Shown here in pieces: positions 4,705-39,233 of a DNA stretch of 64,000 nt. Origin of the DNA: Acidimicrobiaceae bacterium (GTDB lineage: Bacteria > Actinomycetota > Acidimicrobiia > Acidimicrobiales > RAAP-2). The position numbers and the translations under genes were made by a program. The stretch's first letter is position 1. Each line of letters begins with the position of its first letter. The DNA lies in contig DAHUZJ010000021.1 of NCBI GenBank assembly GCA_027306585.1, positions 3,564-67,563 of the forward strand. The letters run 5' to 3'. Below the pieces are notes generated by a model. The model was not told the DNA's origin. It saw nothing but the letters and a program-made list of their open reading frames with translations, and did not search any database.

Positions 4705-6834
4705 TCATGTGGTGCTGCCCGCTGCCTCGTGCGCGGCGCGCCGGCGCCACCCGGTCCGCCACGAGCGCGCCCACCATCCGAGGAGCACCAGCACCGCCAG
4801 GACGGTGAGGATCACCCCCACGACCGAGGTGGCGGTCGACCGCACGGTGACCTGCGTCTTGGCGAAGACGAGGCCGGGCACCGAGAACTGCACTGTGAGC
4901 GGCGAGTCCCCGAGCGTGCGGGCCTCCACGTGGAAGCGGACGGAGTTGTTGGGGTGGTCCAGTGTGAGCGGCTGCGCCGTCGAATCGGGGAAGTTGAACT
5001 TGTTGCTCGAGACGCTGAGCGTTCCCCGGATCGCGTAGGGGGCAGCGGACACCACGGTGATGGGGATCCACCCTGTCCGCGACGTCAAGGTGATTGTCCG
5101 GTTGGTCGACAGCTGGACCAGCGACAGCTGGTGGGCGAGGATCTTGTCGAACGCCGACACGGACGTCGCCATCCCGGCCCGGCCCCGGTAGTCGGCCTCG
5201 GCGGCGAGCAGCGCCTGGTCGAGCCCCGCCAGCACCGATGGGGCGCCGCGCACGGCGGTGCCGAAGTGGGTGAGGCGCAGCCGGGCTGTGCTGAGCCGGG
5301 CGGCGAGCGCCTTCGAGAGGGCCTGGGCGGGCCCGGCCGACTGGAGGTGCCGGACGTCTGTTGTGGGCGCAGGCACTGTGGCGAAGAAGGCGGCGAGGGT
5401 GACGGGCTGCACCACCGGGCTGTTCTTGAGCCCGGACAGCAACTGGTCCAAGAAGCGCGCTGTCTCGTGCCAGCCCGCCACCGGCACCGCCACCATCCCG
5501 CGAGGCGTGGATGTGTTGGGCCGCTCGAAGTGGATGATGGCCAAGTCGGCCACGAGCTGGGCGGCGGCCAGCGCCGGGTCCCCCGGGTCGGCGGCGAACT
5601 GGGAGCCCAGCACGCTGTCCGAGGCGCTGGCGGTGAGGGTCGGTCCTTTGCCAAAGGGCAGCTGGAACGGCCAGCCCCATGTGACGCCGGCGCCGACCGG
5701 GGGCCGGGCGAGCTGGATGTCGGGCACGACGACGTGCGTGGCGCCCACCTGGCCGAGCCCGGTGCCGGTGGCGTCGCTGACCTGGCCGGTGCTCACCCAG
5801 GTTGTGGGGGCCGTCACGCTGACGCCGTACTGCTTGAGGACGGAGCGGGCCGCGGTGACCTGCGCTGTGATCTCGGTGGGCTCGCCGGCTGCGGCGAGCC
5901 CACCGAGATCCACGGGCACGTAGGTCTGTGCGACGGTCTCGTCCACCGTGGGCCGCGTGGTCGACAGGTGGGCCAGCGTGGCGACGGCGGCCCGTCCGGC
6001 GGACCCGCTCTTGCTCAGCGCCTCGACCGTCTGAGGGGTGGGCTCGAGGGTCACCGGGACCGACGACTGGTGCAGGGTGCCGACGAGCCGTGTCAGCGAG
6101 CGAGCCGTGGTGGGGGAGAGGGGCGTCAGGGCCTTGGACGGGTCGGTGGCCCCAGCTCGCACCGTGGTCGGGGCCGACACGGGCACGACCCAGGCGAAGC
6201 GCAGCGGGTCGGCGCTGGTGCGGGGCGCGTACGTGAGGTACGTGGTGAACTGCCCGAGGGGCGCGCCCGCCGGGCTCTGGAGCGAGACGACCGCCGGGTA
6301 CACCCCTGTGCAGAGCCCGCGAGCGGCTGTGCATGTCAGGTCGATCGTGGGCGTCCCCGCCGCGGGGGCGGGGCTCGTCGAGGAGGACGCCTCAACGGCG
6401 ACCCGGAGCTGGACCACCCCGGCACCGTGCGGACCCGTGGGCAGCTGGGCGAGCGGCACCGGTGTGGTGTGGTCGACCTCCGGCGCGTCGCTCTGGCTGG
6501 GCGGGGTGTGCAGCGTCGCCTCGTACCCGCTCCGGGTGCGGAGCCGGGCGTACACGCTGACGCTGACCTCGGCGTCCGCCGGGGCGTCGACCGCCGAGAG
6601 GACCAGTGTGAATGTCCCCGGGCCGCCTGCGGCCGACGGCGTGACCCAGTTGCTCTGGGACTCGAGCGTGAGCACCGGGCCCTGCCCGGCCGCCTTGGAC
6701 GTGCCCTTGGTGGACGTCGCGCCGAGGGCGGGGGACGGCAGGACGGCCGACGCGACGACCAGGAGGCTCGCGACCAGGGCGGCTGCCGCCGCCGGCAGGG
6801 CACGCCGGGTCACCCGGCCACGCGACACCGACAC
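4705..6834 (-). CDS. secreted/anchored conserved actinobacterial protein (DUF6049-like, Rv3909-position homolog)
   Basis: 709 aa with an N-terminal signal peptide (AALVASLLVVASAVLPSPALGA) and a C-terminal TM helix (VVGVILTVLAVLVLLGWW). It sits in the syntenic slot between murJ and cca. Confidence 0.6.
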   Translation of the reverse strand: MSVSRGRVTRRALPAAAAALVASLLVVASAVLPSPALGATSTKGTSKAAGQGPVLTLESQSNWVTPSAAGGPGTFTLVLSAVDAPADAEVSVSVYARLRTRSGYEATLHTPPSQSDAPEVDHTTPVPLAQLPTGPHGAGVVQLRVAVEASSSTSPAPAAGTPTIDLTCTAARGLCTGVYPAVVSLQSPAGAPLGQFTTYLTYAPRTSADPLRFAWVVPVSAPTTVRAGATDPSKALTPLSPTTARSLTRLVGTLHQSSVPVTLEPTPQTVEALSKSGSAGRAAVATLAHLSTTRPTVDETVAQTYVPVDLGGLAAAGEPTEITAQVTAARSVLKQYGVSVTAPTTWVSTGQVSDATGTGLGQVGATHVVVPDIQLARPPVGAGVTWGWPFQLPFGKGPTLTASASDSVLGSQFAADPGDPALAAAQLVADLAIIHFERPNTSTPRGMVAVPVAGWHETARFLDQLLSGLKNSPVVQPVTLAAFFATVPAPTTDVRHLQSAGPAQALSKALAARLSTARLRLTHFGTAVRGAPSVLAGLDQALLAAEADYRGRAGMATSVSAFDKILAHQLSLVQLSTNRTITLTSRTGWIPITVVSAAPYAIRGTLSVSSNKFNFPDSTAQPLTLDHPNNSVRFHVEARTLGDSPLTVQFSVPGLVFAKTQVTVRSTATSVVGVILTVLAVLVLLGWWARSWRTGWRRRAAHEAAGSTT

Positions 6835-22990: not shown

Positions 22991-24598
22991 GTGCGTGGTC
23001 GGGTGTCCGTCGCCGTCCTCACCCTCGCCGCCGGACTCGCGGTCCTCGCGTGGGCCGGTCCGGCGGGGGCCGGCGTTGCGGCCCGGTCCAACGGCTCCGA
23101 TACCGCACGGAGCGCGTCGCGACGGCGCGGCACCTTCCAGGGTCCCGACGGCGTGGAGGCCTCCTGGGTCATCAAGGAGAACGACAGGCCCGGGACCACG
23201 GCCTGGCGCATCACCGGCCACCAGACCCCCACAGGCATCATGGGCTATGCCAACCGGGTCGAGGCCCGGCGCGGCCAGGTGGTCACGCTCTTCGTGTCCA
23301 CCAGGGCGCCCTCGTTCCGAGTGGAGGCATTCCGCATGGGCTACTACCACGGCAAGGGGGCGCGCCTCGTCTGGCAGTCGGGCAAGGTCGCCGGGGTCGT
23401 CCAGCCGACATGCCCCGTCACCCCGGGGATCAACATGGTCGAATGCCACTGGGCCGCCTCGACGCACTTCTCGGTGGACCGCCAGTGGGTCCAGGGCGAT
23501 TACCTGCTCAAGCTCGTCGGCAGCCAGGGTCAGCAGGCGTACGTCCCGCTCACCGTGTGGGACCCGGCCAGCCGGGCCGCCTACGTCGTCATGGAGGGCT
23601 CGTTCACCCAGGAGGTGTTCAACCCGTTCGGCGGCTACGACCTGTACCAGGGCGCGACCCCGTGTGCCGCGGGGGTCTACCCGTGCTCGAGCCGGTCCCG
23701 GGTGGTCTCCTTCGACCGGCCGTACACCTACGCCTACGGGCAGGGCGCCGGGACGTTCCTCAGCCTCGTGTACCCGCTCACCCGGTGGATGGAGAAGCAC
23801 GGCCTCGACGTCACCTACTGGACGGACCTCACCTTGCACGAGCACGGCACACTGCTCCCCCGCCATCGCGTGCTGATCTCGACCGGCCACGACGAGGAGT
23901 GGTCGCTCCACATGCGCGACGCTGCCACCGCCGGGCTGGACCGCGGCGTCAACATCGCCTTCTTCGGGGCCAGCCCGGTGCTGCGCAAGGTCCGGCTGCA
24001 GCCGTCGCCGCTCGGCCCTGACCGGGAGATCGTGAACTACCGCGACCCCACAGCCGATCCGGAATTGGCGACCGACCCGGCGCGCGTGAGCCAGAACACA
24101 TGGGGCCAAGCCCCCGCCGACCTCCCCGCGAGCGCCCTCGTGGGCGCCGCGTACGTCGGCTTCAACAACACAGCCGCCTTTCCCCTCGTGGTCTCGAACC
24201 CGTCGTCGTGGCTCTTCGCCGGCACCGGGCTGGCGGCCGGTGCCCAGGTGCCCGGCGTGCTCTCCACCGACTTCCAGGAGTACCAGCCGACAGGTGACAA
24301 CCCGCCCGGCGTGGAGATCGTCGCCCATTCGCCGGTGACCGTCACCTTGCACGCCACAACGCAGATGTACGCCGACACGACGTACTACACGATGCCCGGC
24401 GGGGGGGCAGGTGTCTTCGAGAGCGGCGCCAACTCGTGGATCCCGTCGCTCGCTCCGTGCCCGGCGACGACGCCCGCCGCAGCTTGCCCGGCGAAGACCA
24501 TGCGCAAGCTCACCGGCAACGTGCTCCGGGTGTTCGGGCAAGGCCCGGTCGGCCGACGCTATCCGTCGGTCGCCAATTGGCAGCAGTTCTACGGGTGA
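22991..24598 (+). CDS. secreted protein resembling the N,N-dimethylformamidase large-subunit-like family (DUF6605-type)
   Basis: Signal peptide VAVLTLAAGLAVLAWAGPAGA. The segments GYANRVEARRGQVV, GDYLLKL and STGHDEEWSLHMRD are reminiscent of that family. This is a by-eye assignment. Confidence 0.5.
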   Translation: MRGRVSVAVLTLAAGLAVLAWAGPAGAGVAARSNGSDTARSASRRRGTFQGPDGVEASWVIKENDRPGTTAWRITGHQTPTGIMGYANRVEARRGQVVTLFVSTRAPSFRVEAFRMGYYHGKGARLVWQSGKVAGVVQPTCPVTPGINMVECHWAASTHFSVDRQWVQGDYLLKLVGSQGQQAYVPLTVWDPASRAAYVVMEGSFTQEVFNPFGGYDLYQGATPCAAGVYPCSSRSRVVSFDRPYTYAYGQGAGTFLSLVYPLTRWMEKHGLDVTYWTDLTLHEHGTLLPRHRVLISTGHDEEWSLHMRDAATAGLDRGVNIAFFGASPVLRKVRLQPSPLGPDREIVNYRDPTADPELATDPARVSQNTWGQAPADLPASALVGAAYVGFNNTAAFPLVVSNPSSWLFAGTGLAAGAQVPGVLSTDFQEYQPTGDNPPGVEIVAHSPVTVTLHATTQMYADTTYYTMPGGGAGVFESGANSWIPSLAPCPATTPAAACPAKTMRKLTGNVLRVFGQGPVGRRYPSVANWQQFYG

Positions 24599-24895: not shown

Positions 24896-25843
24896 ATGGT
24901 CCGCGAGCTCGTCGTGCTCGGCTCGGCCAGTCAGGTGCCGACCCGCCGCCGGAACCACAACGGCTACCTCCTGCGATGGAATGGCCACGGCGTTCTCTTC
25001 GACCCGGGGGAGGGGACGCAGCGCCAGCTCCTCCTGGCGGGTGTCGCGCCGTCGGCGGTGACCGCCATCTGCATCACCCATTTCCACGGTGACCACTGCC
25101 TCGGCCTGCCGGGGGTGCTCCAGCGCCTGGCGCTCGACGGCGTCGAGCGGCCCGTCCCCATCGTCTTCCCGGCCGCCGGGCGGGAGTACTTCGACCGCCT
25201 CCGGCATGCCTCGTCCTTCGACGACACCCTCGACGTGCGGCCCCTTCCCCTCGAGGCGCCGTCCGACGGGTCCACGGTGCCGGTGCCCCTCGACCTCGGC
25301 GGCGGCCTCTGCCTCGAGGTCGCCGCCCTGGCGCACCGGATCCCCACGGTTGGCTTTCGCCTGGTCGAGCCGGCCGGCCGCACCATGGTGCCCCAGCGGT
25401 TGGCGGCTGCGGGTGTGAGCGGTCCCGACATCGGACGCCTGGAGCGGACCGGGGCCGTCCGGGTGGGCGGGCGCGACGTGCGGGTGCAGGACGTGAGCAT
25501 CGAGCGGCCCGGCCAGCGGGCGGCAGTGGTCATGGACACCGGGTGGTGCGCCGGTGCGCTCGCGCTCGCTGACCACGCCGACCTTCTCGTGTGCGAGGCG
25601 ACGTTCACCACCGCCGACGCTGACGTCGCCGCCCGGTCCGGGCACCTGACGGCTGCCCAGGCGGGCCGGCTGGCGAGCGAGGCGGGCGCCACCCACCTTC
25701 TCCTGGCCCACTTCTCCCAGCGGTACCCGGACGTGGCTCCGCTCGTGGCGGAGGCACGCGCCGCCTTCGCCGGCCGGATCACCGCCGCCGAGGACCTGCA
25801 GCGGGTGGCACTGCCGGCGCGCCGCCGGGCGATCGCCCGGTGA
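24896..25843 (+). CDS. rnz: ribonuclease Z (metallo-beta-lactamase fold)
   Basis: LGSASQVPTRRRNHNGYLL, ITHFHGDHCLGLPG (HxHxDH) and C-terminal LAHFSQRY. Confidence 0.85.
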   Translation: MVRELVVLGSASQVPTRRRNHNGYLLRWNGHGVLFDPGEGTQRQLLLAGVAPSAVTAICITHFHGDHCLGLPGVLQRLALDGVERPVPIVFPAAGREYFDRLRHASSFDDTLDVRPLPLEAPSDGSTVPVPLDLGGGLCLEVAALAHRIPTVGFRLVEPAGRTMVPQRLAAAGVSGPDIGRLERTGAVRVGGRDVRVQDVSIERPGQRAAVVMDTGWCAGALALADHADLLVCEATFTTADADVAARSGHLTAAQAGRLASEAGATHLLLAHFSQRYPDVAPLVAEARAAFAGRITAAEDLQRVALPARRRAIAR

Positions 25844-26152
25844 CGGGGGAACGGCCCCGCGCCCCCGGGTGGCGGCCCGTGCCGGACGAGGGACGGCGTC
25901 ACGGGCGCGAGGCACCTCGCTCGCATCGTGAATTCGCACAACCGGGCGTACCGTGGGCCGGCACCCCCTTTGGCACGAGGCCGACCCCGACCGCACTCGT
26001 TCTGCCTGGTCGAGGGCGAAGCGATTGACACGGCGGCTCCGGCACCGTTGGCTACAGTTCGGATCAGGTCGGTCGATGGACCGGTGGCTCACGGAGGGCC
26101 GCCACGAGCCGGCGGTGGCCTTCGTGCACCGCGGGAGAGGAAGGCCAGTTCG

Positions 26153-27715
26153 ATGGACGACGTGCTCTGGGAGCTCCGCACCGACGAAGACGACGCGTCA
26201 CTGCTCGCCGGTTGCCTCCTGCAGGCGCCGGATGGGATCGACCTCGCCTACCGTCTCCTCGATCGGGTCGCCGAGCGTGACCGGGTGGGGGAGCCCTCCC
26301 TCGTGCTGCACCCAGCCCGCCTTGGCCCGCAGGTCTTCGTGCGCGGTGGCGTACCACCTACGGCCGACGACGTGGCTACCTTGCTCGGGAGGGGCCGGGG
26401 GCTGCACGCCGACGATGCGCGGCTCATGACGGGCATTCAGCCGGTCGTGGCCGCCAGCTGCGAGCGGGCCCTTGATGCCGACGTCACCGCTTCGGCGGAC
26501 GGCGCCGTCGGCGGCCTGGCGAGCCGGCCGTCGCTCGACATCGAGGTCGCCCGTGCCGCGGCCTGCGGTGCTCGCTACGGCTGGCCGGTGACGGCGCTGC
26601 TGCTGGCACTCGCAGGGGCTGACGGACCGTTCGGCGGCTGGGACGCGCTGTGCCGGGCCGTGCTGGCGGCGACCCGAGTCGGTGACCTCGTCGGGGTCGC
26701 TGGTCCCGGCCGGATCCTGGCTCTCCTCGGGAACGGTGGCCCCGGCGTCGGAGCGCCCTTTCTCGAGCGGGTACGAGCCGCCCTCGGCGCTCCGGGGGTG
26801 GAGGGCGCGCCGCCGCCCGGGGTGGTCACGGCCACGGCGAACGTTCCGGCGGAGACGGTCGACCCGGAAGAGGTCTGGCGCCTGCTCGACGAGCGACTGC
26901 TCGAGCACGGCGGTGCGTTGGGCACGTCGGGCGAGCACTGGTCCGGCGCGGTGCCGAGCAGCCTCGAGCTCCAGCTGCGAGCGTTGCCGGGCGTCGTCGC
27001 CGTGGGGACCTCGGCACGTGGCGCCGTGGGCGGCCCGCAGCTGACCGTCGTGGCCCTGGAAGCCGGCGACCACGTGCACGCCGCCGCCAGCCGGTTGGTG
27101 GCGCAGCATTTCGGCGACGGTGCCGTACCCCTCGTCACCGTTGGTGCGAGCCCGCCTTCCGGGCCTTCCGTCCGGACGAATGGCGCGACGAACGGCCACG
27201 AGCGAGCGACGCTGCTGAGTGGCTCCAGGGCTCCGACGGCCGTGCCCAGCACGAACCACACACGCGTCGTGGTCGCCACTGGCGAGCGCCGAGCCCTGGT
27301 GGCCGCCTCCGGGGTCCCCCGCGTCGCCCTCCTCACCGCCCGATTCGACCCGGTCACCGGAACGAGCGAGGTCGCGCTCGGGCGCGACGGTGACCGTGCC
27401 GTGGGCCGAGCAACCGCCGGTCCGCTCGCGGGCGGAGCGCAAGCGACGCTGGCCGCCCTCGGTGTCCTCGGCGTCGACGTGCCCTTCTACCTTCGATCGG
27501 TGGCGCGAGCCCGGGACCTCCCGGGTGAGCCGGTCGTCGTGGTGCTGGCTCCGCGGCACCCACCTGCCGATGGCTTGGCGCAGAGCGCCGAAGGCGACCG
27601 GGTCGGGGTCGCCGGCGGCGACGGTGAGGTGGAGGCAGCCAGCCGGGCCACGCTGGGGGCCCTCAATCGCTTCCTGTTCGCCCGGCCGGAGCTCCGCTCG
27701 GCCGACCGAGGGTGA
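26153..27715 (+). CDS. hypothetical protein with a degenerate GGDEF-like core (GPGRI in place of GGDEF) and retained RxxD spacing
   Basis: ATG 26153 is preceded by GGGAGAGGAAGG. The segment ARYGWPVTALLLALAG...LCRAVLAATRVGDLVGVAGPGRILALLGN...APFLERVRAAL follows the GGDEF-domain template. Its stop overlaps the next start (GTGA). Confidence 0.55.
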   Translation: MDDVLWELRTDEDDASLLAGCLLQAPDGIDLAYRLLDRVAERDRVGEPSLVLHPARLGPQVFVRGGVPPTADDVATLLGRGRGLHADDARLMTGIQPVVAASCERALDADVTASADGAVGGLASRPSLDIEVARAAACGARYGWPVTALLLALAGADGPFGGWDALCRAVLAATRVGDLVGVAGPGRILALLGNGGPGVGAPFLERVRAALGAPGVEGAPPPGVVTATANVPAETVDPEEVWRLLDERLLEHGGALGTSGEHWSGAVPSSLELQLRALPGVVAVGTSARGAVGGPQLTVVALEAGDHVHAAASRLVAQHFGDGAVPLVTVGASPPSGPSVRTNGATNGHERATLLSGSRAPTAVPSTNHTRVVVATGERRALVAASGVPRVALLTARFDPVTGTSEVALGRDGDRAVGRATAGPLAGGAQATLAALGVLGVDVPFYLRSVARARDLPGEPVVVVLAPRHPPADGLAQSAEGDRVGVAGGDGEVEAASRATLGALNRFLFARPELRSADRG

Positions 27716-30552
27716 ACCGCCCCCTGTACCGGTACGGCTCCTCGTTCACGGACCGGGGGAGCGGTCTACGGTTCGAGGCCCACCACCCGGCCACCCGACC
27801 CGACCGCTGGAGGGCCTACGTCGACGGCGTGGCGCGCGAGTACGAGCGCTACGGGATCGGCGAGATCATCGACAGGGCGGCCCTGGAGCGCGGCGACGGG
27901 GTATCGGTGTTCTTCGTCGGCGTCGATGCCGACGATCAGGTCGTCGCCGGGCTGCGCTGTCACGGTCCTCTCGACGAAGCCGCGTCGGCCCAGGCCCTGG
28001 CCGAGGTGGCCCGCTCCCCGGAGTGGGCGGAGCACCGCCAAGCGATCGCCGCGCTGACACCCCACGGCGTCGTCGAGATCAAGGGCGCATGGCGCCAGCT
28101 GAGTGGCGACGGGAACCACCAGGTGACGAAGGCCATGGCCCGCTGCTGTGTGCACGCGGCCGAGTGGCTCGGGGCCGAGGTGCTGCTGGCCTCGGTCGCC
28201 GATCGAATGCGCCCGCTCATGGCAGGCGTCGGCAGCCTCATGATGGGAAAGGAGTCAGCGCCGTACCCGAGCGACCGCTACCGGACGATCCTCACGCAGC
28301 TCCGGCGTTCCCAGACGTGCCGAGAGATGGAGCCGCAGGTCGCGCAGCTTCTGCGGCAGGACGCCGAGGACCTGCGACGTAGCTCGCTCGATGGTCCACC
28401 CACGGGCTGGCGACCGATCGTCCTCGACCCTCGGCAACGCGCCGATCGCCAGATACTGGTGACCTTGCGCAGCGATCCCGGCGTCTTCGTGATCGACGCA
28501 CTGGACTGCCAGCGCAAGGAGCTCGCACAACTGCTGCCGACGCCGACCGCTCCCCTCATGAGCGAGGCACCACGCCACGTCTACTACCCGTGGCGACGGG
28601 TCCTCGTCAAGATACTGGGCCCCGAGTCGTTCCGCGCGGTACGCCTGGACCGCAACCGCAACCGGATCACGCGTGCCGAGCAAGACCGCCTCCGGCGCCA
28701 GCGTGTGGGGATCGTGGGGCTCAGCTCCGGCCACGCCGTCGCCACCACCCTCGCGCTGGAGGGGCTGTGCGGGGAGCTGCGGTTGGCCGACTTCGACGAC
28801 ATCGGGCTCACCAACTTGAACCGGATACCGGCGTCGATCTTCGACGTCGGCGTCAACAAGGCCGTGGTGGCCGCACGCCGGGTGTCCGAGATCGACCCGT
28901 ACCTTCCCGTGCAGATCGTGCCGGACGGGCTCACCGTCGACAACGTCGACGCGTTCGCGGCAGGGCTCGACCTGGTCATCGAGCAGTGCGATGAGATCGG
29001 CATGAAGGTCCTCGTGCGCGAGATCGCCCGTCGTCAAGGTGTGCCGGTCGTGATGGAGACGAGCGACCGGGGACTGCTGGACGTCGAGCGCTTCGACCTC
29101 GAGCCGGAGCGCCCGCTCTTCCACGGGCTCCTCGGTGATGTCACCGCCGAGCAGCTGCGGTCGCTGTCGACCGAGGAGAAGATCCCGCACGTCTTGGCGA
29201 TCGTAGAGCCCGACAAGGCGTCGGCCCGTGGAGCTGCGTCACTGGCGGAGATCGGGCGGACCCTCACCACCTGGCCACAGCTCGGATCCGACGTAACGCT
29301 CGGCGGAGCGTCGGTGGCCGCGGCCGTGCGCCAGATCGGCCTCGGGGTTCGGGTCCCGTCGGGCAGGACCCGGGTGGACATCGACGCCGCGCTGGCCACG
29401 CTCGAGAGCCCAGGAGGCGGTGCCCGGGACGAGCTCCGCGACGCCGACGACGTCCCGGCGGAGCAGCCCGCGGGGACTGCCGGCGCTGCGTGGGCTCCCC
29501 CCAGGGACCCCGTGCTGTCCATCGTGCACGCTGCGACGATGGCGCCCTCGTGCGGGAACGGACAGCCGTGGCAGTTCGCCCTCGATGACCGGCGTCTCGA
29601 CGTAGAGCTCGTGCGTGCCAGGGGTTGTGGCGTCATGGACGTGGGGTCGCGGGCGAGCTACGTGGGGCTTGGTGCGGCCATCTTCAATGCCCGGGTGGCG
29701 GCGGCGCGGGTCAACCGCCTCGGTGCCGTGCACCTCTTTCCGCACGGGCCGAGCTCGGATGTCGTCGCCACGCTTGCCCTCGAGGGGGGGAGCGACGACG
29801 AGCTCGCCGACCTCTACGCGCCGATGTTGCAGCGATGCTCCAACCGTCGTCATGGTCAGCCCGCTCCGCTCGATCTCGCCGTCGGTGGACAGCTCGTGGG
29901 CGCCGCGACGGCCGAAGGTGCGACGCTCCACCTGGTCACCGACCCGGAACGCTTGGCGGAGTGCGCCGAGGTCCTGCGTGCTGCCGAACGGATCCGCTTC
30001 CTCACGGCGGCGCTCCGGAATGAGACGATGCGCGAGATGCGTTGGCCCGGGGGGGACGTGCGCAGAGGAATCGACGTCGCCACGCTCGAGCTGTCGAGCT
30101 TCGAGATGTCGTCGTTGCAGCTCATGCGCCGCCACGACGTGATGGAGCTGCTCGACCGTTGGGACGCGGGAGATGCCTTGGGCGACTACCTCAAGTCGGC
30201 CGTGCTCTCGAGCTCGGCGATCGCCGTCGTCTCGATGTCGAACCAGGCCCCGGCGGCGTACGTCACCGGCGGGATGGCGTTGGAGCGGGTGTGGATCGAG
30301 GTGCAGCGCCTGGGGCTGGCGGTGCACGCCATCGCCCCGTCGTTCCTTTACGCGGTCCAGGCCGCCGACTACGAGAAGTTGGTCGGTGCCCGGTGGGCGG
30401 ATGAGCTGCGCACGCTCTCGGAGCGGTTCCGGTCCGTCGTGAGCATCGAGCCCACGGCAGCGCTCGCGCTGGTGCTGCGTCTCAGCCATGCGCCGCCGCC
30501 GACGGCTCGCAGCATACGGCTCGGTGTGGACGAGGTGCTGCGGCGCAAATAG
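27712..30552 (+). CDS. 946-aa fusion: N-terminal GNAT-like domain (tentative) + Rv1355c-family E1/ThiF-like domain + Acg-type nitroreductase-like domain
   Basis: The middle reads YYPWRRVLVKILGPESFRAVRLDRNRNRITRAEQDRL..VGIVGLSSGHAVATTLALEGLCGELRLADFDDIGLTNLNRIP. The C-terminus has MAPSCGNGQPWQF and a tandem nitroreductase-like fold. About 230 aa at the N-terminus are extra relative to the 715-aa Rv1355c layout. Confidence 0.65.
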   Translation: MNRPLYRYGSSFTDRGSGLRFEAHHPATRPDRWRAYVDGVAREYERYGIGEIIDRAALERGDGVSVFFVGVDADDQVVAGLRCHGPLDEAASAQALAEVARSPEWAEHRQAIAALTPHGVVEIKGAWRQLSGDGNHQVTKAMARCCVHAAEWLGAEVLLASVADRMRPLMAGVGSLMMGKESAPYPSDRYRTILTQLRRSQTCREMEPQVAQLLRQDAEDLRRSSLDGPPTGWRPIVLDPRQRADRQILVTLRSDPGVFVIDALDCQRKELAQLLPTPTAPLMSEAPRHVYYPWRRVLVKILGPESFRAVRLDRNRNRITRAEQDRLRRQRVGIVGLSSGHAVATTLALEGLCGELRLADFDDIGLTNLNRIPASIFDVGVNKAVVAARRVSEIDPYLPVQIVPDGLTVDNVDAFAAGLDLVIEQCDEIGMKVLVREIARRQGVPVVMETSDRGLLDVERFDLEPERPLFHGLLGDVTAEQLRSLSTEEKIPHVLAIVEPDKASARGAASLAEIGRTLTTWPQLGSDVTLGGASVAAAVRQIGLGVRVPSGRTRVDIDAALATLESPGGGARDELRDADDVPAEQPAGTAGAAWAPPRDPVLSIVHAATMAPSCGNGQPWQFALDDRRLDVELVRARGCGVMDVGSRASYVGLGAAIFNARVAAARVNRLGAVHLFPHGPSSDVVATLALEGGSDDELADLYAPMLQRCSNRRHGQPAPLDLAVGGQLVGAATAEGATLHLVTDPERLAECAEVLRAAERIRFLTAALRNETMREMRWPGGDVRRGIDVATLELSSFEMSSLQLMRRHDVMELLDRWDAGDALGDYLKSAVLSSSAIAVVSMSNQAPAAYVTGGMALERVWIEVQRLGLAVHAIAPSFLYAVQAADYEKLVGARWADELRTLSERFRSVVSIEPTAALALVLRLSHAPPPTARSIRLGVDEVLRRK

Positions 30553-30613
30553 GCATGCACACGCGTCGCCGGAGCGCCCCACCCGAGCGATCGAGTGCCA
30601 GCGTGGACAGGGG

Positions 30614-30642
30614 TCGACGCGCGGGTTGTGACCGGGTATCAT
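30614..30642 (+). promoter_or_regulatory. candidate promoter of the first GGDEF-EAL gene
   Basis: -35-like TCGACG (30614-30619), a 17-nt spacer and -10 TATCAT (30637-30642). It sits in a locally AT-richer patch. Confidence 0.3.
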
Positions 30643-30672
30643 CAGTTGACCTATTGCTTGGGGATGGGAACC

Positions 30673-32943
30673 ATGAGCGTAGAGTCAGCTAGCGGGGACA
30701 ATCGGACGCGGGAGAGCAACACCATTGATCTCCTCGCGGCAGTCGTGCGTTTGCTCGAGGGTGCGGTCGCCGCGACCATCGTGCCGCGCGCGGAGTTCAG
30801 CAGCCCGATCGTATGGGCAGATCTCGCCAACGCAGATGTCGCCGCGGGGTTGGGCTCGCTCGCCGCGCGCTGCTTCGCGGACTGCGGTCCATGGGGCGAG
30901 AGCGCCGCCGACGGTTGGACGGGTTGGGTGGAGCCAATCGCCGACGTCGACGGTGAAGGCCCTCCGGTTGGTGTCCTGGCGTTCGCCGTGCGTGACCGGC
31001 CGAGCTTGGACGCCAACGAGCAGACGACCGTTGCGTTGTTCGCTCGATTGTGCGGCGTCGTCCTGGCGTCGCCGGTTGCGACAGAACAGGCGACACAGCG
31101 GCTTCGGCTGGACGAGCTGGTCTCCACGATCAGCGAGCGTCTGATGGTGACGACGGGACCGAACCTCGAGGCGGCACTGGACTGGACGGTGGAGCACCTG
31201 TGCCGGTTCCTGGGGGCGGACGTGGCCTTCTTGCGGCGCAACGACCGGGCCCAGGACGTCAGCGTCCTCATGGCGTTCTATCCCCCGCGGAACATGCCGA
31301 TCGAAGACGACCCGCTCGGCATCGTTCCCTTCGACGCAGACCCCATCTTCGCTGCCACGAAGGACCTGAAGATCCCGCTCATCGTCCGCAACGCGGCCGA
31401 GACCGACGATCGCTACCTGCAGCGCGTGAAGGACGCGGGCCAGAGCATCGACTTCACGGGTGCGGCGGCTCCCTTGGTGCACGGTGACACGACCGAAGGC
31501 ATCTTGGCCTTCGTCTACCTGTCCGAGTACTGGTGGTCGGAGCGCGAGGTCAACGCGCTTCGCACCATTGCCGCCTTGCTGGTCCAACTGCTGCACCGTG
31601 TGGACGCGGAGGACCGCCTGTGGCACAGCGCGTTGACCGATGAGCTGACCGGCCTCGCCAATCGGCGCGCCCTCTTCGCGGAGGTGGCGCGCCGCCAGCG
31701 CTCGCCGGGGAGCTCGATCGCCCTTCTGTTCATGGACCTCGACAGGTTCAAGGTGATGAACGACCACTTGGGGCACGGTGCCGGTGACAGAGTCCTCCAG
31801 GTGATCGCCGACCGGATCCGCACGTCGCTGCGACCATCGGACTTTGCGGCCCGGCTGGGTGGCGACGAATTCGTCGTGGTGCTCGACGAGACAGGCGGGG
31901 GCTTGGCGGCCACGGCCGCAGGCAACCGCCTCCTCGAGGTCATCTCGTCACCGATCGATGTCGACGGTCAGCGCGTGACGCACACCGGCAGCGTCGGCAT
32001 CGCGTTGTGCAGTGACAGCTCGCTCGGAGGAGAGGAGCTGCTCGGGCAGGCCGACGTCGCTCTGTACGCCGCCAAGTCGCAGGGTCGCAACCGCGTGGTC
32101 GTCTTCGACCATGAGCTCGAGCAGAGGGTGGCCAAGCGCTCGAGCACGGAGCTCGAACTGCGCCAGACGTTCACTGAGCACGCGTTGCGGCTCGCCTATC
32201 AGCCCGAGGTCGACCTTCGCACGGGCAAGCTGCTCGCCGTCGAGGCGTTGGTGCGCTGGCAGCGCCACGGCGAGCTCGCCGAGGCGAGCCAGTTCATCCC
32301 GGTCGCCGAAGAGACGAACCTCATCACGGACATCGACCGATGGGTCCTCGACGAGGCGTGCGCCCAGATGGCGGCGTGGTCGCTGGCCCATCCGCACCTC
32401 GACCACTTGGTCGTGCGAGTCAACATCTCTCCCGTCCAGCTGGCGGTGAACGGGCTCGCGCGAATGGTGGCCGACTGCCTGCACAACTCCGGTCTCGCTC
32501 CCGAGCGACTCTGTCTCGAGATCACCGAGCAGGCCGTGATCGGCGACATCGAGCAGGTCGTCCGGGTGCTGCACGATGTTCGGGGGATGGGCGTGCAGCT
32601 GGCGGTCGACGATTTCGGCACCGGGTTCTCGTCGATGATCCAGCTCAAGAACCTTCCGGTCGATGTCCTGAAGGTCGATCGGGTGTTCGTGGACCGCATC
32701 GCGGAGGACGCGGGCGACCAGGCCATCGTGGAGGCCATCGTCCGCCTGGCCACGGCCTTCGAGCTGGACGTGGTGGGCGAAGGGGTGGAACGCCTCGCCG
32801 ACATGGAGACGCTCGTGCAGCTGGGATGCCTCCGGGCGCAGGGCTACCTGCTCGCCCGGCCGCTCCCACCTCTGGCGCTCGAGCCACTGTTCGCGCGTGG
32901 CGGCATCGATCTCGCTTCGATTGGGGCGTCGGCGCCGGCGTGA
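30673..32943 (+). CDS. GAF-GAF-GGDEF-EAL protein (diguanylate cyclase/phosphodiesterase), paralog 1
   Basis: RPSDFAARLGGDEFVV carries an intact GGDEF with an RxxD I-site. The EAL side has AVEALVRW, DDFGTGFSS, KVDR and GEGVE. The start could be ATG 30664 or 30673. Confidence 0.9.
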   Translation: MSVESASGDNRTRESNTIDLLAAVVRLLEGAVAATIVPRAEFSSPIVWADLANADVAAGLGSLAARCFADCGPWGESAADGWTGWVEPIADVDGEGPPVGVLAFAVRDRPSLDANEQTTVALFARLCGVVLASPVATEQATQRLRLDELVSTISERLMVTTGPNLEAALDWTVEHLCRFLGADVAFLRRNDRAQDVSVLMAFYPPRNMPIEDDPLGIVPFDADPIFAATKDLKIPLIVRNAAETDDRYLQRVKDAGQSIDFTGAAAPLVHGDTTEGILAFVYLSEYWWSEREVNALRTIAALLVQLLHRVDAEDRLWHSALTDELTGLANRRALFAEVARRQRSPGSSIALLFMDLDRFKVMNDHLGHGAGDRVLQVIADRIRTSLRPSDFAARLGGDEFVVVLDETGGGLAATAAGNRLLEVISSPIDVDGQRVTHTGSVGIALCSDSSLGGEELLGQADVALYAAKSQGRNRVVVFDHELEQRVAKRSSTELELRQTFTEHALRLAYQPEVDLRTGKLLAVEALVRWQRHGELAEASQFIPVAEETNLITDIDRWVLDEACAQMAAWSLAHPHLDHLVVRVNISPVQLAVNGLARMVADCLHNSGLAPERLCLEITEQAVIGDIEQVVRVLHDVRGMGVQLAVDDFGTGFSSMIQLKNLPVDVLKVDRVFVDRIAEDAGDQAIVEAIVRLATAFELDVVGEGVERLADMETLVQLGCLRAQGYLLARPLPPLALEPLFARGGIDLASIGASAPA

Positions 32944-33150
32944 CCGGTTGAGCCGCGCCCGGGTGTGCTCCGCCCCGGCCCGGACCGTGCTGAGCCGGCC
33001 GGTCGTCCTCGCTCCCGGACACCCACCTCTGGCGGTGGTGCCGGTGCCGTCACTACGCAGGGCTGGCGTGACGTTGCGCCTGGAAGTAGCATTGACGTGG
33101 GGTCGCTGTCACCGGGGGACGTGGCGGCGAAATGGGATGGGGACAATGTG

Positions 33151-35472
33151 ATGAGATCGGAACCACCGGTCATCAATGACCGCCTTGGGACGCTGCTGGC
33201 CGCCACCGTTCGCCTGATGCGCGGCGCAGTCGCTGCAGCCGTGGTGTCAGCATCCGGCAACGAAGCTCCCGCGGGCTGGGCTACCACCGAAGTCGCCGGG
33301 CTGGCGGAGGAATTGCGCGCCGTGGTGAGCAAGCGGCTCGACACCGTGGGCCCCTGGGGGGCCTTGCTCCTGGCGGGATCGCCCGAGCGGACCGTGTGGA
33401 TCGAGCCGATCGCGGGTCACGGCCCGTCCGACGCCGAGGGTCACGCGCTCCAATACCTCGAGGGTCCGAGCGGTACCGACCGCGTGATCGGAGCGCTTGC
33501 CGTCGCGTTCGAAGGCTCCTTTCCCGCGCTCACCGGCGAGGAGGGCAAGACCGTACGGCTGCTGGCGCGCCTCTGCGGCGGAGCCAGTTTCGGCGTGCAG
33601 CACGTGGAAGACGTCGCCGATCAGCGTCAGCTGGACGACCTGGTCTCGCGGATCAGCGAGCGGTTGATGTCGACGACATCGTCCTCACTTCGAGAGAACC
33701 TCGACTGGACGGTCGAGACCTTGTCCCGGTACCTGGGGGCGTCGGCAGGCTTCCTGCGCCGCAACGACCACGCCGCCGACACCAGCATCCTGGTGGCCGA
33801 GTACCCGCGGCGAGACCTCGACGCGGACAGCGACCCGTTGGCGGTGGTGCCCTTCGACGCCGATTCCATCTTCGCGGCGACCCGAGACTTCAAGGCTCCT
33901 CTCGTCATCCACGACCCGAGCGCGGTGAGCGTTGATTATGCGGAGAGAGTGGCGTCGGCGACTGGGCTGAGGGTGTTCACGGCCGCCGGGGTACCCCTCG
34001 TCCACGCCGACGTCACCGAGGGCTGCCTCGGCTTCGTGTTCGGGTCGCAGTTCGATTGGTCGGAGCCCGAGCTCAACGCCGTGCGCGCGGTCGGTTCCCT
34101 GCTCGTGCAACTGCTGCACCGGATCGACGCCGAAGAGCGACTCCGCCACAGCGCGATGACCGACGAGCTGACGGGCCTCGCCAACCGGCGGGCGCTGCTC
34201 GACGAGGTCAGCCGTTGTCCGATGAGCCCGCGGCACCCGTTGGCGATGCTCTTCCTCGACCTCGACCGTTTCAAGGTCATGAACGACTTCCTCGGCCACC
34301 GTGCCGGCGACAAGCTGCTCTGCGTGATCGCCGATCGAATCCGTACGTCGTTGCGCCCGACGGACTTCGCCGCCCGACTGGGCGGCGACGAGTTCGTCGT
34401 CCTGCTCGAGGACGGCGGCGACATCCTTGGCGCAGTGGCCGCAGCGGAGCGGCTCCTCGAGTTGATCGCCCTCCCGATCGACATCGGGGGGCGGAGCGTG
34501 ACCCACACGGGGAGCATCGGCGTCGCTGTCGGTGACCATCCCACCATGAGCGGCGAGAAGCTGCTCGGTCATGCCGACATCGCCATGTACGCCGCCAAGT
34601 CGCAGGGTCGGAACCAGATCGTCGTCTTCGACGCCGGACTGGAGGCTCGTGTGGCGAACCGCTCGAACACCGAGCTCTTGCTGCGCAAGGCCATGGCCAA
34701 CGAAGAGTTCGAGGTCTACTACCAACCGGAGTTCGATCTGCTTACGGGCCGCCTTCTCGCCGTCGAGGCGTTGCTCCGGTGGCACCGCGAGGGCCATGGC
34801 GTCGTCGGAGCCGGCGAGTTCATCCCGGTGGCGGAGGAGACCCACCTCATCACGGAGATCGACCGCTGGGTGCTCGAGCAGGCCTGCAGCCAGCTGGCGA
34901 GGTGGCGTCGGGAGTACCCCGCGGTCCAGCTCGATGTGCGAGTCAACATGTCACCGGCCCAGTTGGTGATGCCAGGGGTCGTGCAGACGGTGCAGCGATC
35001 GTTGCGGCGTTCGGGTCTTCCGGCCGAGCTGCTCTGTCTCGAGATCACTGAGCAGGCCATGATCAGCGACATCGACCAAGCCGTCCACATTCTTCGCGAC
35101 GTGCGCCGGCTCGGCGTTCAGCTGGCCATCGACGACTTCGGCACCGGCTACAGCTCGATGGTGCAATTGAAGAACCTGCCGGTGAACGCGCTCAAGATCG
35201 ACCGCGAGTTCGTGGACGGCATCGCCGACGACCTCACCGACCAGGCGATCGTGGACTCGGTCGTGCGCCTCGCCCGGGCCTTCCGGCTCGAGGTGGTGGC
35301 AGAGGGCGTGGAGACCGTGCCCGACCTGCAGACGCTCGTGCGGCTGGGTTGCCGCCGGGCACAGGGGTTCCTCCTGGCGAAGCCGATGCCAGCATCCGAG
35401 GTGGCACCGCTCCTCGCTCGGCGGGGCATCGACCTCGTCGCGCTCACGGCGCCCGCCGGCGCCCGCCACTGA
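33151..35472 (+). CDS. GAF-GAF-GGDEF-EAL protein, paralog 2
   Basis: It is colinear with paralog 1 (RPTDFAARLGGDEFVV, AVEALLRW, DDFGTGYSS, KIDR, AEGVE). An in-frame upstream GTG at 33097 or 33121 is possible, because the GDN motif conserved with paralog 1 lies upstream of ATG 33151. Confidence 0.9.
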   Translation: MRSEPPVINDRLGTLLAATVRLMRGAVAAAVVSASGNEAPAGWATTEVAGLAEELRAVVSKRLDTVGPWGALLLAGSPERTVWIEPIAGHGPSDAEGHALQYLEGPSGTDRVIGALAVAFEGSFPALTGEEGKTVRLLARLCGGASFGVQHVEDVADQRQLDDLVSRISERLMSTTSSSLRENLDWTVETLSRYLGASAGFLRRNDHAADTSILVAEYPRRDLDADSDPLAVVPFDADSIFAATRDFKAPLVIHDPSAVSVDYAERVASATGLRVFTAAGVPLVHADVTEGCLGFVFGSQFDWSEPELNAVRAVGSLLVQLLHRIDAEERLRHSAMTDELTGLANRRALLDEVSRCPMSPRHPLAMLFLDLDRFKVMNDFLGHRAGDKLLCVIADRIRTSLRPTDFAARLGGDEFVVLLEDGGDILGAVAAAERLLELIALPIDIGGRSVTHTGSIGVAVGDHPTMSGEKLLGHADIAMYAAKSQGRNQIVVFDAGLEARVANRSNTELLLRKAMANEEFEVYYQPEFDLLTGRLLAVEALLRWHREGHGVVGAGEFIPVAEETHLITEIDRWVLEQACSQLARWRREYPAVQLDVRVNMSPAQLVMPGVVQTVQRSLRRSGLPAELLCLEITEQAMISDIDQAVHILRDVRRLGVQLAIDDFGTGYSSMVQLKNLPVNALKIDREFVDGIADDLTDQAIVDSVVRLARAFRLEVVAEGVETVPDLQTLVRLGCRRAQGFLLAKPMPASEVAPLLARRGIDLVALTAPAGARH

Positions 35473-37091: not shown

Positions 37092-39233
37092 TCACAGCGC
37101 GTCCCGCAGCGCCGCCAGCACGCGTGCCGGCCGGAGCGGGAGGTCCCGGACCCGCACCCCGGTTGCCTGGGCGACGGCGTTGGCGATGGCGCCACCGGTC
37201 GGACCGCACGTGGCCTCGCCGGCACCCATCGGCCGGTGTCCGGGTCGGTCGAGGAGGCGGGTCTCGACCGGCGGCACCTCCGAGAAGCGCAGGATGGGGT
37301 AGTCGTCCCAGCCCGTCGGCACCCCGTCGGCCTCCTCCTTCAACGTCCAGCTGGCGGCTTGGACGAACCCGCCCTCCAGCTGGTTCACCAGCCCGTCGGG
37401 ATCGACGACCTCGCCGGCGTCGGCGGCGATCCACCCGCGCCGGAGGGTGACGGCCCCGGTCCGTGCCGACACCTCGACCTCGGCCACCACGGCGGCGTAG
37501 GTCATGGAGTTCTCGTAGCGGGCGAAGCCCAGCCCCCGGCCGGGAGCGTCGTCGCCTCCCGGTGCGGCGAGCCCCCCGCACAGCTCGACGACGGCCTCGA
37601 CGACGGCCCGGGCACGCGGGTCGGCGAGGTGCCGCAGCCGCAGCTCGACCGGGTCCTGGCCGGAGGCGAGGGCCAGCTCGTCGAGGAAGGACTCGATGGC
37701 GAACACGTTGGCGAAGGCGCCGAGGCTGCGGAGGGCCGACGTCCGCAGCGCCGAGCCGTCGTCCACGTCGTGCTTGACCACGCGGCGGGCGCCGACGGCG
37801 TAGGCCGGGTCGGCGTTGCGGTGGCCGCCGATCTCGAACGACCGGCGAGGCGTCGCCCGTGCCCGGGGAACGGCCGGGTCGAGCGACCAGCTGGCGAGCA
37901 GGCGGGAGCCACCGCGCAGCGTGACCGGCCGGGTGCTGTGGGGGTAGGTGAGGATCTCCTGGTCCCAGGAGGTCACCGCGCCGGAGGAGTCGACACCGGC
38001 GGCGAGGTGCACGGCCATTGCGGGTCCCCGGGGCTCCCACGCGTGCTCGTCCTGGCGCGTCCACCGTACGGCGACGGGTGGCCCCGGGCGGGCGGTGGCG
38101 ACCAGGGCGGCGTCGAGGGCGACGTCGTCGGCACCGTTGTGCCCGTAGCAGCCCGGGCCGGCGACGTGCTGGACGGTCACCGCGGCGTCGTCCCATCCGA
38201 GGACGGCGGCGATCGCGTGCCGCAGCGGGCCGACGCCCTGGCTGTGCGTCCACACCGTGAGGTGCCCGTCCACGCACCGTGCGGCGGCCGCCGACGGGCC
38301 GATCGAGGCGTGGAGGAGGAACGGCTTGCGGTAGGTGGCGCGCACCACCGTCGCCGCGCCGACGAGGTCGAGGGGTGGCGGGGGCGGTCCGTCGACACCG
38401 GCACCGTCGACGATCGACATGGACTCGACGACGTGGCCCTCCATGTACCCGGGATCGGTGCTCTCGGGCGGCGGGGGGGCGCCGCCCGTCCAGGTGAGCC
38501 GGGACGCAAGGAGCTCGGCGGCCGCCTCGGCTGCCCACTCGGTGTCGGCGACCACGGCCACGAAGTGGCCCCGGCGCACGACCTCCGCCTCGCCCGCGAC
38601 GAGCGGGACATCGCCGGCGAGGGTGGCCCCGGGCCGCGGCGGCCGCACGACGCGCGCGACGCGCAGCTCGGGCAGCTGCAGGTCCTGGGCGAAGACGGGC
38701 TCGCCCCGGATCCGCTCTGCCAGGTCGACGCGGGGCATCCCGTGCCCGACCCAACGGCGCTCTTCCGGCGGCACCGTCGGGACGGGCGTCCGGACGAGCA
38801 GCGCGAACGGGCGTCCCGCCGCCAGCTCGGCGTACGACCGGGCCCTGCCGTCGGGGGCGACCACGTGCCCGTCCACGGCCCGCAGGTCGAAGGCGGGGAC
38901 CCCGAGCTCGTCGGCCGCCCGGGCCACCATGGCCGCCAGCGCGTGGGCGCACGCCTGGCGCACGGCGCCGCCGCTGTCCTCGATCGATCGGCTGCCGGAG
39001 GTGACGCCCTCATCGGGCGTGCCGTCGGTGCACGGCCCCTCGAGGACGATCCACGCCGGGTCGAGGTGCAGCTCCTCGGCGGCCAGCAGCACGAGCGCCG
39101 TGTGGATCCCCTGGCCGAGCTCGGCCTTGCCGGTGCGCACCACCACCCGGTTGTCCGCTTCGACCCGCACCCAGTCGTCGAGCGCAGGATGGTCGCGGAG
39201 GGACCCGAGCTGCCGGCGGAGGTCGTCGTCCAT
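37092..39233 (-). CDS. IorB-type molybdopterin-binding subunit of the xanthine dehydrogenase/aldehyde oxidase family
   Basis: 713 aa. WVRVEADNRVVVRTGKAELGQGIHTALVLLAAEEL is typical of the IorB N-terminus. The C-terminus has GAGEATCGPTGGAIANAV. No adjacent 2Fe-2S subunit gene. Confidence 0.75.
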   Translation of the reverse strand: MDDDLRRQLGSLRDHPALDDWVRVEADNRVVVRTGKAELGQGIHTALVLLAAEELHLDPAWIVLEGPCTDGTPDEGVTSGSRSIEDSGGAVRQACAHALAAMVARAADELGVPAFDLRAVDGHVVAPDGRARSYAELAAGRPFALLVRTPVPTVPPEERRWVGHGMPRVDLAERIRGEPVFAQDLQLPELRVARVVRPPRPGATLAGDVPLVAGEAEVVRRGHFVAVVADTEWAAEAAAELLASRLTWTGGAPPPPESTDPGYMEGHVVESMSIVDGAGVDGPPPPPLDLVGAATVVRATYRKPFLLHASIGPSAAAARCVDGHLTVWTHSQGVGPLRHAIAAVLGWDDAAVTVQHVAGPGCYGHNGADDVALDAALVATARPGPPVAVRWTRQDEHAWEPRGPAMAVHLAAGVDSSGAVTSWDQEILTYPHSTRPVTLRGGSRLLASWSLDPAVPRARATPRRSFEIGGHRNADPAYAVGARRVVKHDVDDGSALRTSALRSLGAFANVFAIESFLDELALASGQDPVELRLRHLADPRARAVVEAVVELCGGLAAPGGDDAPGRGLGFARYENSMTYAAVVAEVEVSARTGAVTLRRGWIAADAGEVVDPDGLVNQLEGGFVQAASWTLKEEADGVPTGWDDYPILRFSEVPPVETRLLDRPGHRPMGAGEATCGPTGGAIANAVAQATGVRVRDLPLRPARVLAALRDAL

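Follow-up and report, generated by a model that had tools for sequence, protein, structure and literature searches.

What does a protein do that carries an acyltransferase-like domain, a ThiF/E1-like domain and a flavin-type fold on one chain? The stretch examined here, referred to as the window, comprises 64,000 nucleotides of contig DAHUZJ010000021.1 (assembly GCA_027306585.1, positions 3,564 to 67,563) from an Acidimicrobiaceae bacterium of the order Acidimicrobiales, and one of its genes encodes such a chain, 946 aa in length (Table 1). A preliminary description, made from the letters alone, had placed most of the chain in the mycobacterial Rv1355c family, called the function of that family unknown and named no characterised example of the architecture. 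Both statements have been superseded. Rv1356c is TrzA, which N-acylates L-tryptophan from short-chain acyl-CoA, and Rv1355c is TrzS, a ThiF-like cyclase joined to a flavin-dependent oxidase (FDO), which carries out an ATP-dependent cyclization and then an O2-dependent desaturation of N-acyl-Trp, yielding N-acyl tryptazolones (Kleetz et al., JBC 2025, PMC12856293, December 2025). All three activities have been characterised as TrzA+TrzS, TyzA/B/C and OxzA/B; in mycobacteria trzA and trzS are two adjacent genes. We consider it highly probable that the 946-aa protein is an N-acyl oxazolone synthase on a single chain, in which TrzA (residues 1 to ~228) is fused in frame to TrzS (~232 to 946). The chemistry is already known; the three-in-one arrangement is new, as is the lineage in which it occurs. 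The same description had suggested modification of a small molecule or peptide, and for the small molecule it was right.

The open reading frame (ORF) and all quoted motifs were located exactly as claimed: VVEIKGAWR at residues 120-128, RCCVHAAEWLGAEVLL at 144-159, YPSDRY at 185-190, the segment ending in NLNRIP at 332-373 and APSCGNGQPWQF at 611-622. The start codon is a GTG at 27712, the earliest one available past the in-frame upstream stop. Its letters are shared in part with the stop codon of the ORF before it (GTGA), and family conservation sets in at residue 6 (YRYG), so the start is well constrained and does not lie downstream of the N-terminal domain. GC content at third codon positions (GC3) is 0.75-0.98 in the frame of the gene from ~27720 through to the stop, and this unbroken signal argues that the first 230 residues and the remainder, here called the body, form a single coding frame. 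An identical 946-aa product is present in public collections on one NCBI contig, and the 90% cluster of the protein holds four further members of 946 aa, each set in other assemblies. Rfam and tRNA scans of the window gave no matches.

The body belongs to the TrzS family. Residues 232-944 match NCBIfam model NF005901 ('Rv1355c family', model positions 10-719 of 722) at E 1e-269 and 896.7 bits, against a curated cut-off of 476 bits for this equivalog model. Identity to the TrzS of Rhodococcus koreensis is 51% over 703 residues, and in neighbour-joining (NJ) trees the body nests among actinobacterial TrzS, beside a clade of Rhodococcus and Mycobacterium. Domain boundaries were set by family models: within the body, Pfam recognises a ThiF domain at residues 313-488, and the Acg-family FMN oxidoreductase model NF047509 covers residues 604-875 (E 1.5e-40). 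The colinearity of residues ~230-946 with Rv1355c, the E1/ThiF-like Rossmann region and the Acg-type tandem nitroreductase-like domain, all proposed earlier, were thus confirmed. The oxidase domain, taken within the 946-aa chain, scores 139.7 bits with NF047509, below the cut-off of 199; by this measure it is related to the stand-alone Acg-family FMN oxidoreductases and is not a member of that family. Stand-alone Acg-family enzymes are ~330 aa long and belong to the DosR regulon. The relation of the oxidase domain to Acg can be placed in terms of the distinction between FDO-A and FDO-B drawn in PMC10404671. The linker between cyclase and oxidase, variable here, has been described as poorly defined in TrzS (PMC12856293). 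A sulfur-carrier activator of the MoeB/ThiF/MoeZ type, corresponding to the old 'MoeY' annotation, was considered and rejected, with 21-63 bits against equivalog cut-offs of 152-647; no MoaD/ThiS-like gene was seen among the neighbours of the fusion gene.

Conservation of catalytic residues agrees with this assignment. All 74 family members compared share G336, S338, G340, D360, D362, R371, K383 and D427, and the APSxGNxQPW motif, R708, R712 and R762 of the oxidase domain are invariant in the family alignment. The nucleotide loop had been described as degenerate (GLSSGH). That reading of the letters was correct, but the loop is not defective in this protein: the family keeps G336, S338 and G340 without exception and the characterised members need ATP, so GLSxGH is a family signature and not a sign of lost nucleotide binding. 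Residues tested in the TrzS of Mycobacterium smegmatis, TrzS(Msmeg), were located through the mutagenic primers in the supplementary table of PMC12856293. D217A abolishes cyclization there, and R540A impairs FMN binding and desaturation (PMC12856293); the equivalents in the window protein, D427 and R762, are both kept.

The N-terminal domain was more difficult to place. Residues 1-235 have no match in Pfam or NCBIfam even at E <= 10, and NF005901 begins at residue 232; the ~230 N-terminal residues are therefore extra, as had been proposed, and are not a standard part of the Rv1355c family. Word-indexed searches returned 2 matches with the sequence and 6 with a profile, and an exhaustive HMMER search of 1.84 billion representatives was required to recover 181 relatives, 114 of them at E <= 1e-10. 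The majority stand alone at a length of 230-260 aa, and at least 12 are chains of 934-978 aa. AlphaFold2 (AF2) run on residues 1-235 as a single sequence gave an unusable model (predicted local distance difference test, pLDDT, 43). With a 60-sequence family alignment the pLDDT of the domain rose to 95 and the predicted template modelling (TM) score to 0.91, and the order of strands and helices is that of the GNAT fold. The best Foldseek match in the PDB is FeeM (2g0b; TM 0.60 by query, 0.73 by target), followed by the acyl-homoserine lactone (AHL) synthases BjaI (5w8a), RpaI (6wn0), TofI and LasI; FeeM and the CoA-dependent AHL synthases match at E 2e-7 to 4e-6 with 13-17% sequence identity. 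Foldseek returned GNAT enzymes throughout, and the tentative assignment to a GNAT of the LuxI/FeeM type is borne out. This kinship is seen only at the level of the fold, since a family-profile search of PDB sequences gave noise (alpha-synuclein) and Pfam scans of all 60 aligned family members gave noise and scattered DUFs. FeeM and AHL synthases such as BjaI and RpaI share with the proposed activity a GNAT-type acyl transfer to an amino acid amine. FeeM uses an acyl group on acyl carrier protein, and AHL synthases also lactonise S-adenosylmethionine.

Residues invariant across the 60 family members (G80, E122, G174 and P186) are all present in the window protein, as is the near-invariant set P26, W33, Y44, R82, G85, P86, K124, W127, Y185, Y190 and T192. 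The same holds for every residue invariant in a 13-row alignment of the window protein with 12 stand-alone upstream ORFs. E122 is a candidate general base, a role suggested by the example of FeeM and the AHL synthases.

TrzA and TrzS have been studied from M. tuberculosis (Mtb), M. smegmatis and R. jostii RHA1 (PMC12856293). To anchor the N-domain family, cloning primers from the supplementary table of that paper were mapped on the R. koreensis locus (L019). In its gene-specific part the reverse primer for TrzA(RHA1) agrees letter for letter with 6687-6705, the 3' end of an ORF of the N-domain family, and the forward primer encodes MSVEQLT where this ORF begins MPVEQLS. The TrzS(RHA1) primers fall on the start (4 mismatches) and the end (1 mismatch) of the next gene. 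Three of the four primers thus map to R. koreensis gene boundaries, with 0, 4 and 1 mismatches, and in this locus the trzA stop and trzS start overlap as GTGA. The N-domain is 32% identical to the R. koreensis TrzA ortholog (E 5e-30), which is likewise without a Pfam-A or NCBIfam match. The lack of a model for the TrzA family accounts for the labels 'hypothetical protein' and 'Rv1355c family protein'; the fused members carry only the latter name at NCBI. Two further relatives, P0226 and P0230, end in TAAGQ as does TrzA(Msmeg), with a different N-terminus.

The window protein can be compared with several known systems. With TrzA+TrzS it shares the three modules and their order in the DNA (acyltransferase, ThiF-like cyclase, flavin-dependent oxidase), the equivalents of D217 and R540, and a downstream GAF-GGDEF-EAL gene like rv1354c. 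It differs in being one polypeptide instead of two, in its ~32% identical acyltransferase, in a His at the position of Q651 and in its host, an Acidimicrobiales bacterium and not a mycolic-acid producer. OxzA+OxzB of Pseudoalteromonas rubra and other Proteobacteria, which make tyrazolone and phenazolone, are the founding example (de Rond et al., bioRxiv 10.1101/2020.06.11.147165). There too an N-acyltransferase gene lies 5' of a two-domain ThiF-nitroreductase gene, and an oxazolone is formed with ATP from an N-acyl aromatic amino acid, but the proteins are separate, the substrates are Tyr and Phe with acyl chains of C7-C12, and the ThiF domain falls in a different subcluster from TrzS (PMC12856293). 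TyzA/TyzB/TyzC, from the Rv2336-Rv2338c region of M. tuberculosis, make a C12 tyrazolone by the same three chemistries (PMC10404671, 2023, from the group of PMC12856293). They are three separate proteins with tyzA divergently transcribed; the nearest structures of TyzA, FeeM 2G0B and BjaI 5W8C (PMC10404671), are the neighbours found independently for the N-domain in the window. The best PDB sequence match of the ThiF domain is the tRNA t6A cyclodehydratase TcdA (4rdh, 4d7a; E 2.4e-11), which also closes an oxazolone ring with ATP, although its substrate is tRNA and neither an oxidase nor an acyltransferase is fused to it.

How often the N-domain is fused, and what lies beside it, was surveyed in one genome per GTDB species. 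A scan with the alignment of fused proteins gave 80 loci, in each of which stop-to-stop ORFs were searched with the N-domain family hidden Markov model (HMM) and the body sequence, and the arrangement was assigned in the 73 loci with a near full-length body match. The N-domain lies in the same ORF as the body in 18 loci by strict count, all from Acidimicrobiales or Acidimicrobiaceae metagenome-assembled genomes (MAGs); two loci with partial body matches (L026 and L032) are also fused, giving ~20 in all. It has an ORF of its own that adjoins the body gene on the 5' side in 23 loci (E 1e-64 to 1e-93) of Nakamurella, Rhodococcus, Nocardia, Mycobacterium/Mycolicibacterium, Jiangella, Phytoactinopolyspora and Actinomycetospora, a count that includes a weak Kibdelosporangium match (E 1e-14). 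Nine loci, from Bacteroidota, have a separate ORF directly downstream (E 1e-4 to 1e-15). A relative is nearby without abutting, on either strand, in five: Streptomyces (weak, E 1e-9), Nocardia (L036), an Actinomycetota MAG (L021) and Gordonia. The flanks of the remaining 18 hold no relative; among these are seven Mycobacterium-type loci, Myxococcota and others. That the two parts are fused in some genomes and abutting neighbours in others is the pattern of a Rosetta-stone fusion of functionally coupled genes.

Some of these loci deserve comment in their own right. A distant acyltransferase homolog lies 3' of a ThiF-FDO gene in Bacteroidota, including Algoriphagus, Pedobacter and Cryomorphaceae (L058, L062, L065, L066, L069, L070, L074 and L078-L080). 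At the Nocardia sp. NPDC050193 locus (L036, 6711-7835), ~1.1 kb separates the trzA-like and trzS-like ORFs; the spacer is a possible insertion, since both genes abut in other Nocardia loci. The seven trzS-only loci of Mycobacterium type (L020, L022, L023, L025, L027, L033 and L037) come from five Mycobacterium/Mycolicibacterium genomes and two Mycobacterium-related MAGs. The stretch 5' of trzS in L022 looks non-coding, and in two of the seven a GGDEF-EAL gene lies directly downstream.

The three-domain fusion had been presented as unusual. It is real, but it is not peculiar to this genome: it recurs in 18-20 Acidimicrobiales loci and in Leucothrix arctica. The fused chains fall into at least 12 clusters when grouped at 50% identity, and they align with the window protein through the whole length of the three domains (36-49% identity). 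Their junction is poorly conserved in sequence, yet it is a linker of conserved length in one frame, and the pLDDT of the AF2 model falls to ~61 at residues 231-235. A crude NJ tree unites all fused GTDB loci and the window protein in one clade. Three metagenomic representatives with the fusion (P0084, P0103 and P0141) do not belong to it, so the fusion may have arisen more than once; their placement hints at independent fusion events or horizontal transfer. P0103 is WP_109825514.1, a 954-aa three-domain fusion from L. arctica, a low-GC gammaproteobacterial isolate. Loss of the 4-nt GTGA stop/start overlap probably created the fusion, for which a small indel would have been enough. One relative on an ENA contig, P0002, gives a 340-aa product with 66% identity to the N-domain that runs out of frame twice and then matches the TrzS start; it comes from a close relative of the fusion gene that has either decayed to a frameshifted pseudogene or been misread in sequencing. 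The papers searched on these enzymes always have the acyltransferase as a separate adjacent gene and nowhere mention a three-domain chain.

Taken together with the characterised enzymes, this architecture suggests a route. The GNAT/FeeM-like domain would use acyl-CoA to load a short or medium acyl group onto the alpha-amino group of an aromatic L-amino acid. The ThiF-like domain, with an ATP site predicted to be formed by D427, R371 and K383, would adenylate the carboxylate, and attack by the amide oxygen would close a 5(4H)-oxazolone ring. The FMN-dependent oxidase domain, with R762 at the putative FMN/substrate site, would then use O2 to desaturate the C-alpha-C-beta bond, giving a conjugated N-acyl 'tryptazolone'. 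Fusion would set the three steps at 1:1:1 stoichiometry and may allow intermediates to pass from domain to domain. Tryptophan is the best guess for the substrate, because the body falls in the Rv1355c/TrzS equivalog family and nests with actinobacterial TrzS.

Several observations weigh against a synthase of this kind or loosen its details. The N-domain is only 27-35% identical to Mycobacteriales TrzA, so its amino-acid and acyl-chain specificity may differ. Its link to TrzA is through the RHA1 ortholog and gene position, not through the sequence of Rv1356c; primer-derived termini of Mtb TrzA were found in none of the proteins collected here, and the best 120 of 802 homologs were from other mycobacteria. 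H872 stands in place of Gln651, whose Q651A variant is impaired (PMC12856293); among the 74 family members 56 have Q at this position, 13 H, 3 Y and 2 R. C614 (29551-29553) replaces a Gly of the APSGGN motif, at a position that is Gly in 11 of 12 aligned fused relatives (P0103 has Pro) and in 12 of 12 displayed loci. Both residues belong to the oxidase domain, where a change could alter how flavin or substrate is handled. The flanks of the seven Mycobacterium-type trzS loci hold no TrzA-family ORF, with HMM filters off and E <= 50. Finally, the analysis establishes the architecture, the fold, family membership, conserved residues, synteny and the recurrence of the fusion; what the enzyme catalyses, which amino acid and acyl chain it takes, whether it channels and what it does for the cell are inferred for members known from sequence.

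Among other explanations, the one that fares best keeps the three-step chemistry and changes the product: use of Tyr, Phe or some other amino acid, or of quite another kind of acyl chain, would lead to a tyrazolone- or phenazolone-type or a new oxazolone. The far greater divergence of the acyltransferase (32%) than of the cyclase/oxidase part (51%) points this way, as do H872 and C614 in the region of the oxidase pocket, and specificity does vary in the literature, with OxzAB and TyzACB acting on Tyr/Phe and acyl length differing among the Mtb, Msmeg and RHA1 enzymes. For these reasons the specificity is left wide. The TrzS part, however, scores well above the Rv1355c equivalog cut-off and nests by Rhodococcus and Mycobacterium TrzS, and the nearest stand-alone relatives of the N-domain are genes in the TrzA position; we regard a different product as possible, though unlikely. 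Much less probable is a catalytically dead N-domain, kept as a remnant for binding, docking or regulation while another enzyme supplies the N-acyl amino acid. The Mycobacterium loci with trzS and no adjacent trzA show that TrzS can exist without a partner encoded in cis; yet the domain keeps all invariant and near-invariant family residues, is predicted to have an intact GNAT core at very high confidence and is retained across the whole fused clade at 36-69% identity.

An E1-like modifier of proteins or peptides, either an activator of a ubiquitin-like protein or a tailoring enzyme of ribosomally synthesised peptides such as MccB or PaaA, would fit the weak PDB sequence matches to PaaA, MccB and UBA5 and the habit of the ThiF superfamily of acting mostly on protein or peptide C-termini (PMC12596934). 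It is very improbable: TcdA, the top PDB sequence match, is a cyclodehydratase that forms an oxazolone, the full-length TrzS equivalog model is matched, the fused or adjacent partner is an amino acid N-acyltransferase, and no gene for a precursor peptide or ubiquitin-like protein is evident among the larger adjacent ORFs (small ORFs were not screened). Least credible of all is an artefact of frameshift, assembly or start choice that joins a trzA and a trzS really separate, for although the 4-nt overlap of split genomes would let a single-base sequencing error join the frames, and P0002 is visibly frameshifted, the one-ORF form is shared by 18-20 independent GTDB genomes and at least 12 clusters at 50% identity, the 946-aa protein occurs in other assemblies (five members in the 90% cluster in all), and the junction linker has a conserved length in one frame with continuous GC3. 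A single-chain oxazolone synthase thus remains the reading we prefer.

Table 1. Features of the fusion gene, its neighbours in the window and the R. koreensis reference ORF
Feature	Position	Strand	Evidence or remark
Whole fusion gene TrzA-TrzS (acyltransferase, ThiF-like cyclase, flavin-dependent oxidase; assigned by homology)	27712..30552	+	946 aa; ORF, GC3, collinear with 12 fused representatives end to end
TrzA-like GNAT-fold amino acid N-acyltransferase domain (predicted), residues 1-228	27712..28395	+	Family search, AF2, Foldseek, identity to TrzA ortholog
E122, in VVEIKGAW strand, candidate general base	28075..28077	+	Invariant in family, fused and stand-alone alignments
Fusion junction SLDGPPTG-W, residues 229-236	28396..28419	+	Sits at trzA stop / trzS start overlap of split loci
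TrzS N-terminal region, residues 232-312	28405..28647	+	Inside NF005901; aligns to N-terminus of R. koreensis TrzS
ThiF/E1-like adenylating (cyclase) domain, residues 313-488	28648..29175	+	Pfam PF00899, E 3.5e-24; PDB sequence matches TcdA, MoeB, ThiF
D427, equivalent of Asp217 of TrzS(Msmeg)	28990..28992	+	Mutagenic primer VEEC[D>A]SLDA maps onto window IEQC-D-EIG; 74/74
ThiF module C-terminal part and variable linker to oxidase, residues 489-595	29176..29496	+	TTWPQLGSDV and SGRxRxD conserved, then gap-rich variable stretch
Flavin-dependent oxidase (predicted desaturase), Acg-type tandem nitroreductase fold, residues 596-944	29497..30543	+	NF047509; PDB 2ymv
R762, equivalent of Arg540 of TrzS(Msmeg)	29995..29997	+	Mutagenic primer TDRI[R>A]YLTP maps onto window AERI-R-FLTA; 74/74
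H872, substitution at Gln651 position of TrzS(Msmeg)	30325..30327	+	Primer GVSV[Q>A]PVSP vs window GLAV-H-AIAP
GAF-GGDEF-EAL cyclic di-GMP enzyme, Rv1354c-like, copy 1	30595..32943	+	Pfam GAF, GGDEF, EAL; GGDEF and EAL motifs intact
GAF-GGDEF-EAL paralog, copy 2	32965..35472	+	55% identical to copy 1; GGDEF and EAL motifs intact
Upstream ORF, Ala/Gly-rich	25928..27715	+	Stop overlaps fusion-gene start (GTGA)
DMFA2_C-like amidase	22991-24598
Metallo-beta-lactamase-fold protein	24896-25843
Molybdopterin-binding oxidoreductase subunit	37092-39233	−
R. koreensis TrzA ortholog ORF	L019 5890-6702		N-domain family member

Downstream of the fusion gene lie two paralogous genes for GAF-GGDEF-EAL enzymes of cyclic di-GMP (c-di-GMP) turnover. 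In a promoter/terminator scan neither gene junction, the 43-bp gap behind the fusion gene included, showed a terminator-like site, and the sole matches of the scan are a promoter-like stretch inside copy 1 (30614-30642) and a terminator-like one inside copy 2 (34016-34031). The three genes are probably co-transcribed, which points to a signalling or stress role. A GAF-GGDEF-EAL homolog is found on the same strand within 430 bp downstream in 46 of the 80 loci, among them every fused Acidimicrobiales locus and the majority from Mycobacteriales, Nakamurella and Jiangella; the loci of Bacteroidota, Myxococcota and Streptomyces all lack it. Adjacency to rv1354c and rv1357c has been remarked for M. 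tuberculosis only (PMC12856293). One could imagine the fused synthase and the GAF-GGDEF-EAL proteins as a single signalling module, in which a labile oxazolone or its N-acyl amino acid precursor would serve as an intracellular or autocrine signal, be sensed by the GAF domain of the adjacent diguanylate cyclase/phosphodiesterase and be coupled to c-di-GMP turnover, with the fusion channelling hydrolysis-prone intermediates. The basis for this idea is purely syntenic, spanning the divide between Acidimicrobiia and Actinomycetes, and we hold it to be speculative and rather doubtful.

Upstream, the Ala/Gly-rich ORF that overlaps the fusion gene has no Pfam, NCBIfam or PDB match. Judged by GC3, its true start is probably near 26150 and not at 25928. 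Homologs are present in 20 loci, from Acidimicrobiales only, where they lie 5' of the fusion gene (L001, L002 and L012) or after the GGDEF-EAL gene. The products of the amidase, metallo-beta-lactamase-fold and molybdopterin-binding genes listed in Table 1 have no homologs at E <= 1e-5 in the 80 related loci.

The finding bears on both the enzymes and their hosts. Fusion supports the joint action of TrzA and TrzS from the side of genomes, independently of the biochemistry. The TrzA family represents an annotation gap in Pfam and NCBIfam, for fused and stand-alone members alike. A natural single-chain enzyme leading from amino acid and acyl-CoA to oxazolone could help biocatalysis, and could help to probe whether fusion enforces the order of cyclization then desaturation, or channelling, a question raised by PMC12856293. 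The biosynthesis of oxazolone lipids would be extended from mycolic-acid bacteria and Proteobacteria to uncultured Acidimicrobiales, and the deeply conserved GAF-GGDEF-EAL neighbour offers a testable lead on the physiological role of oxazolones.

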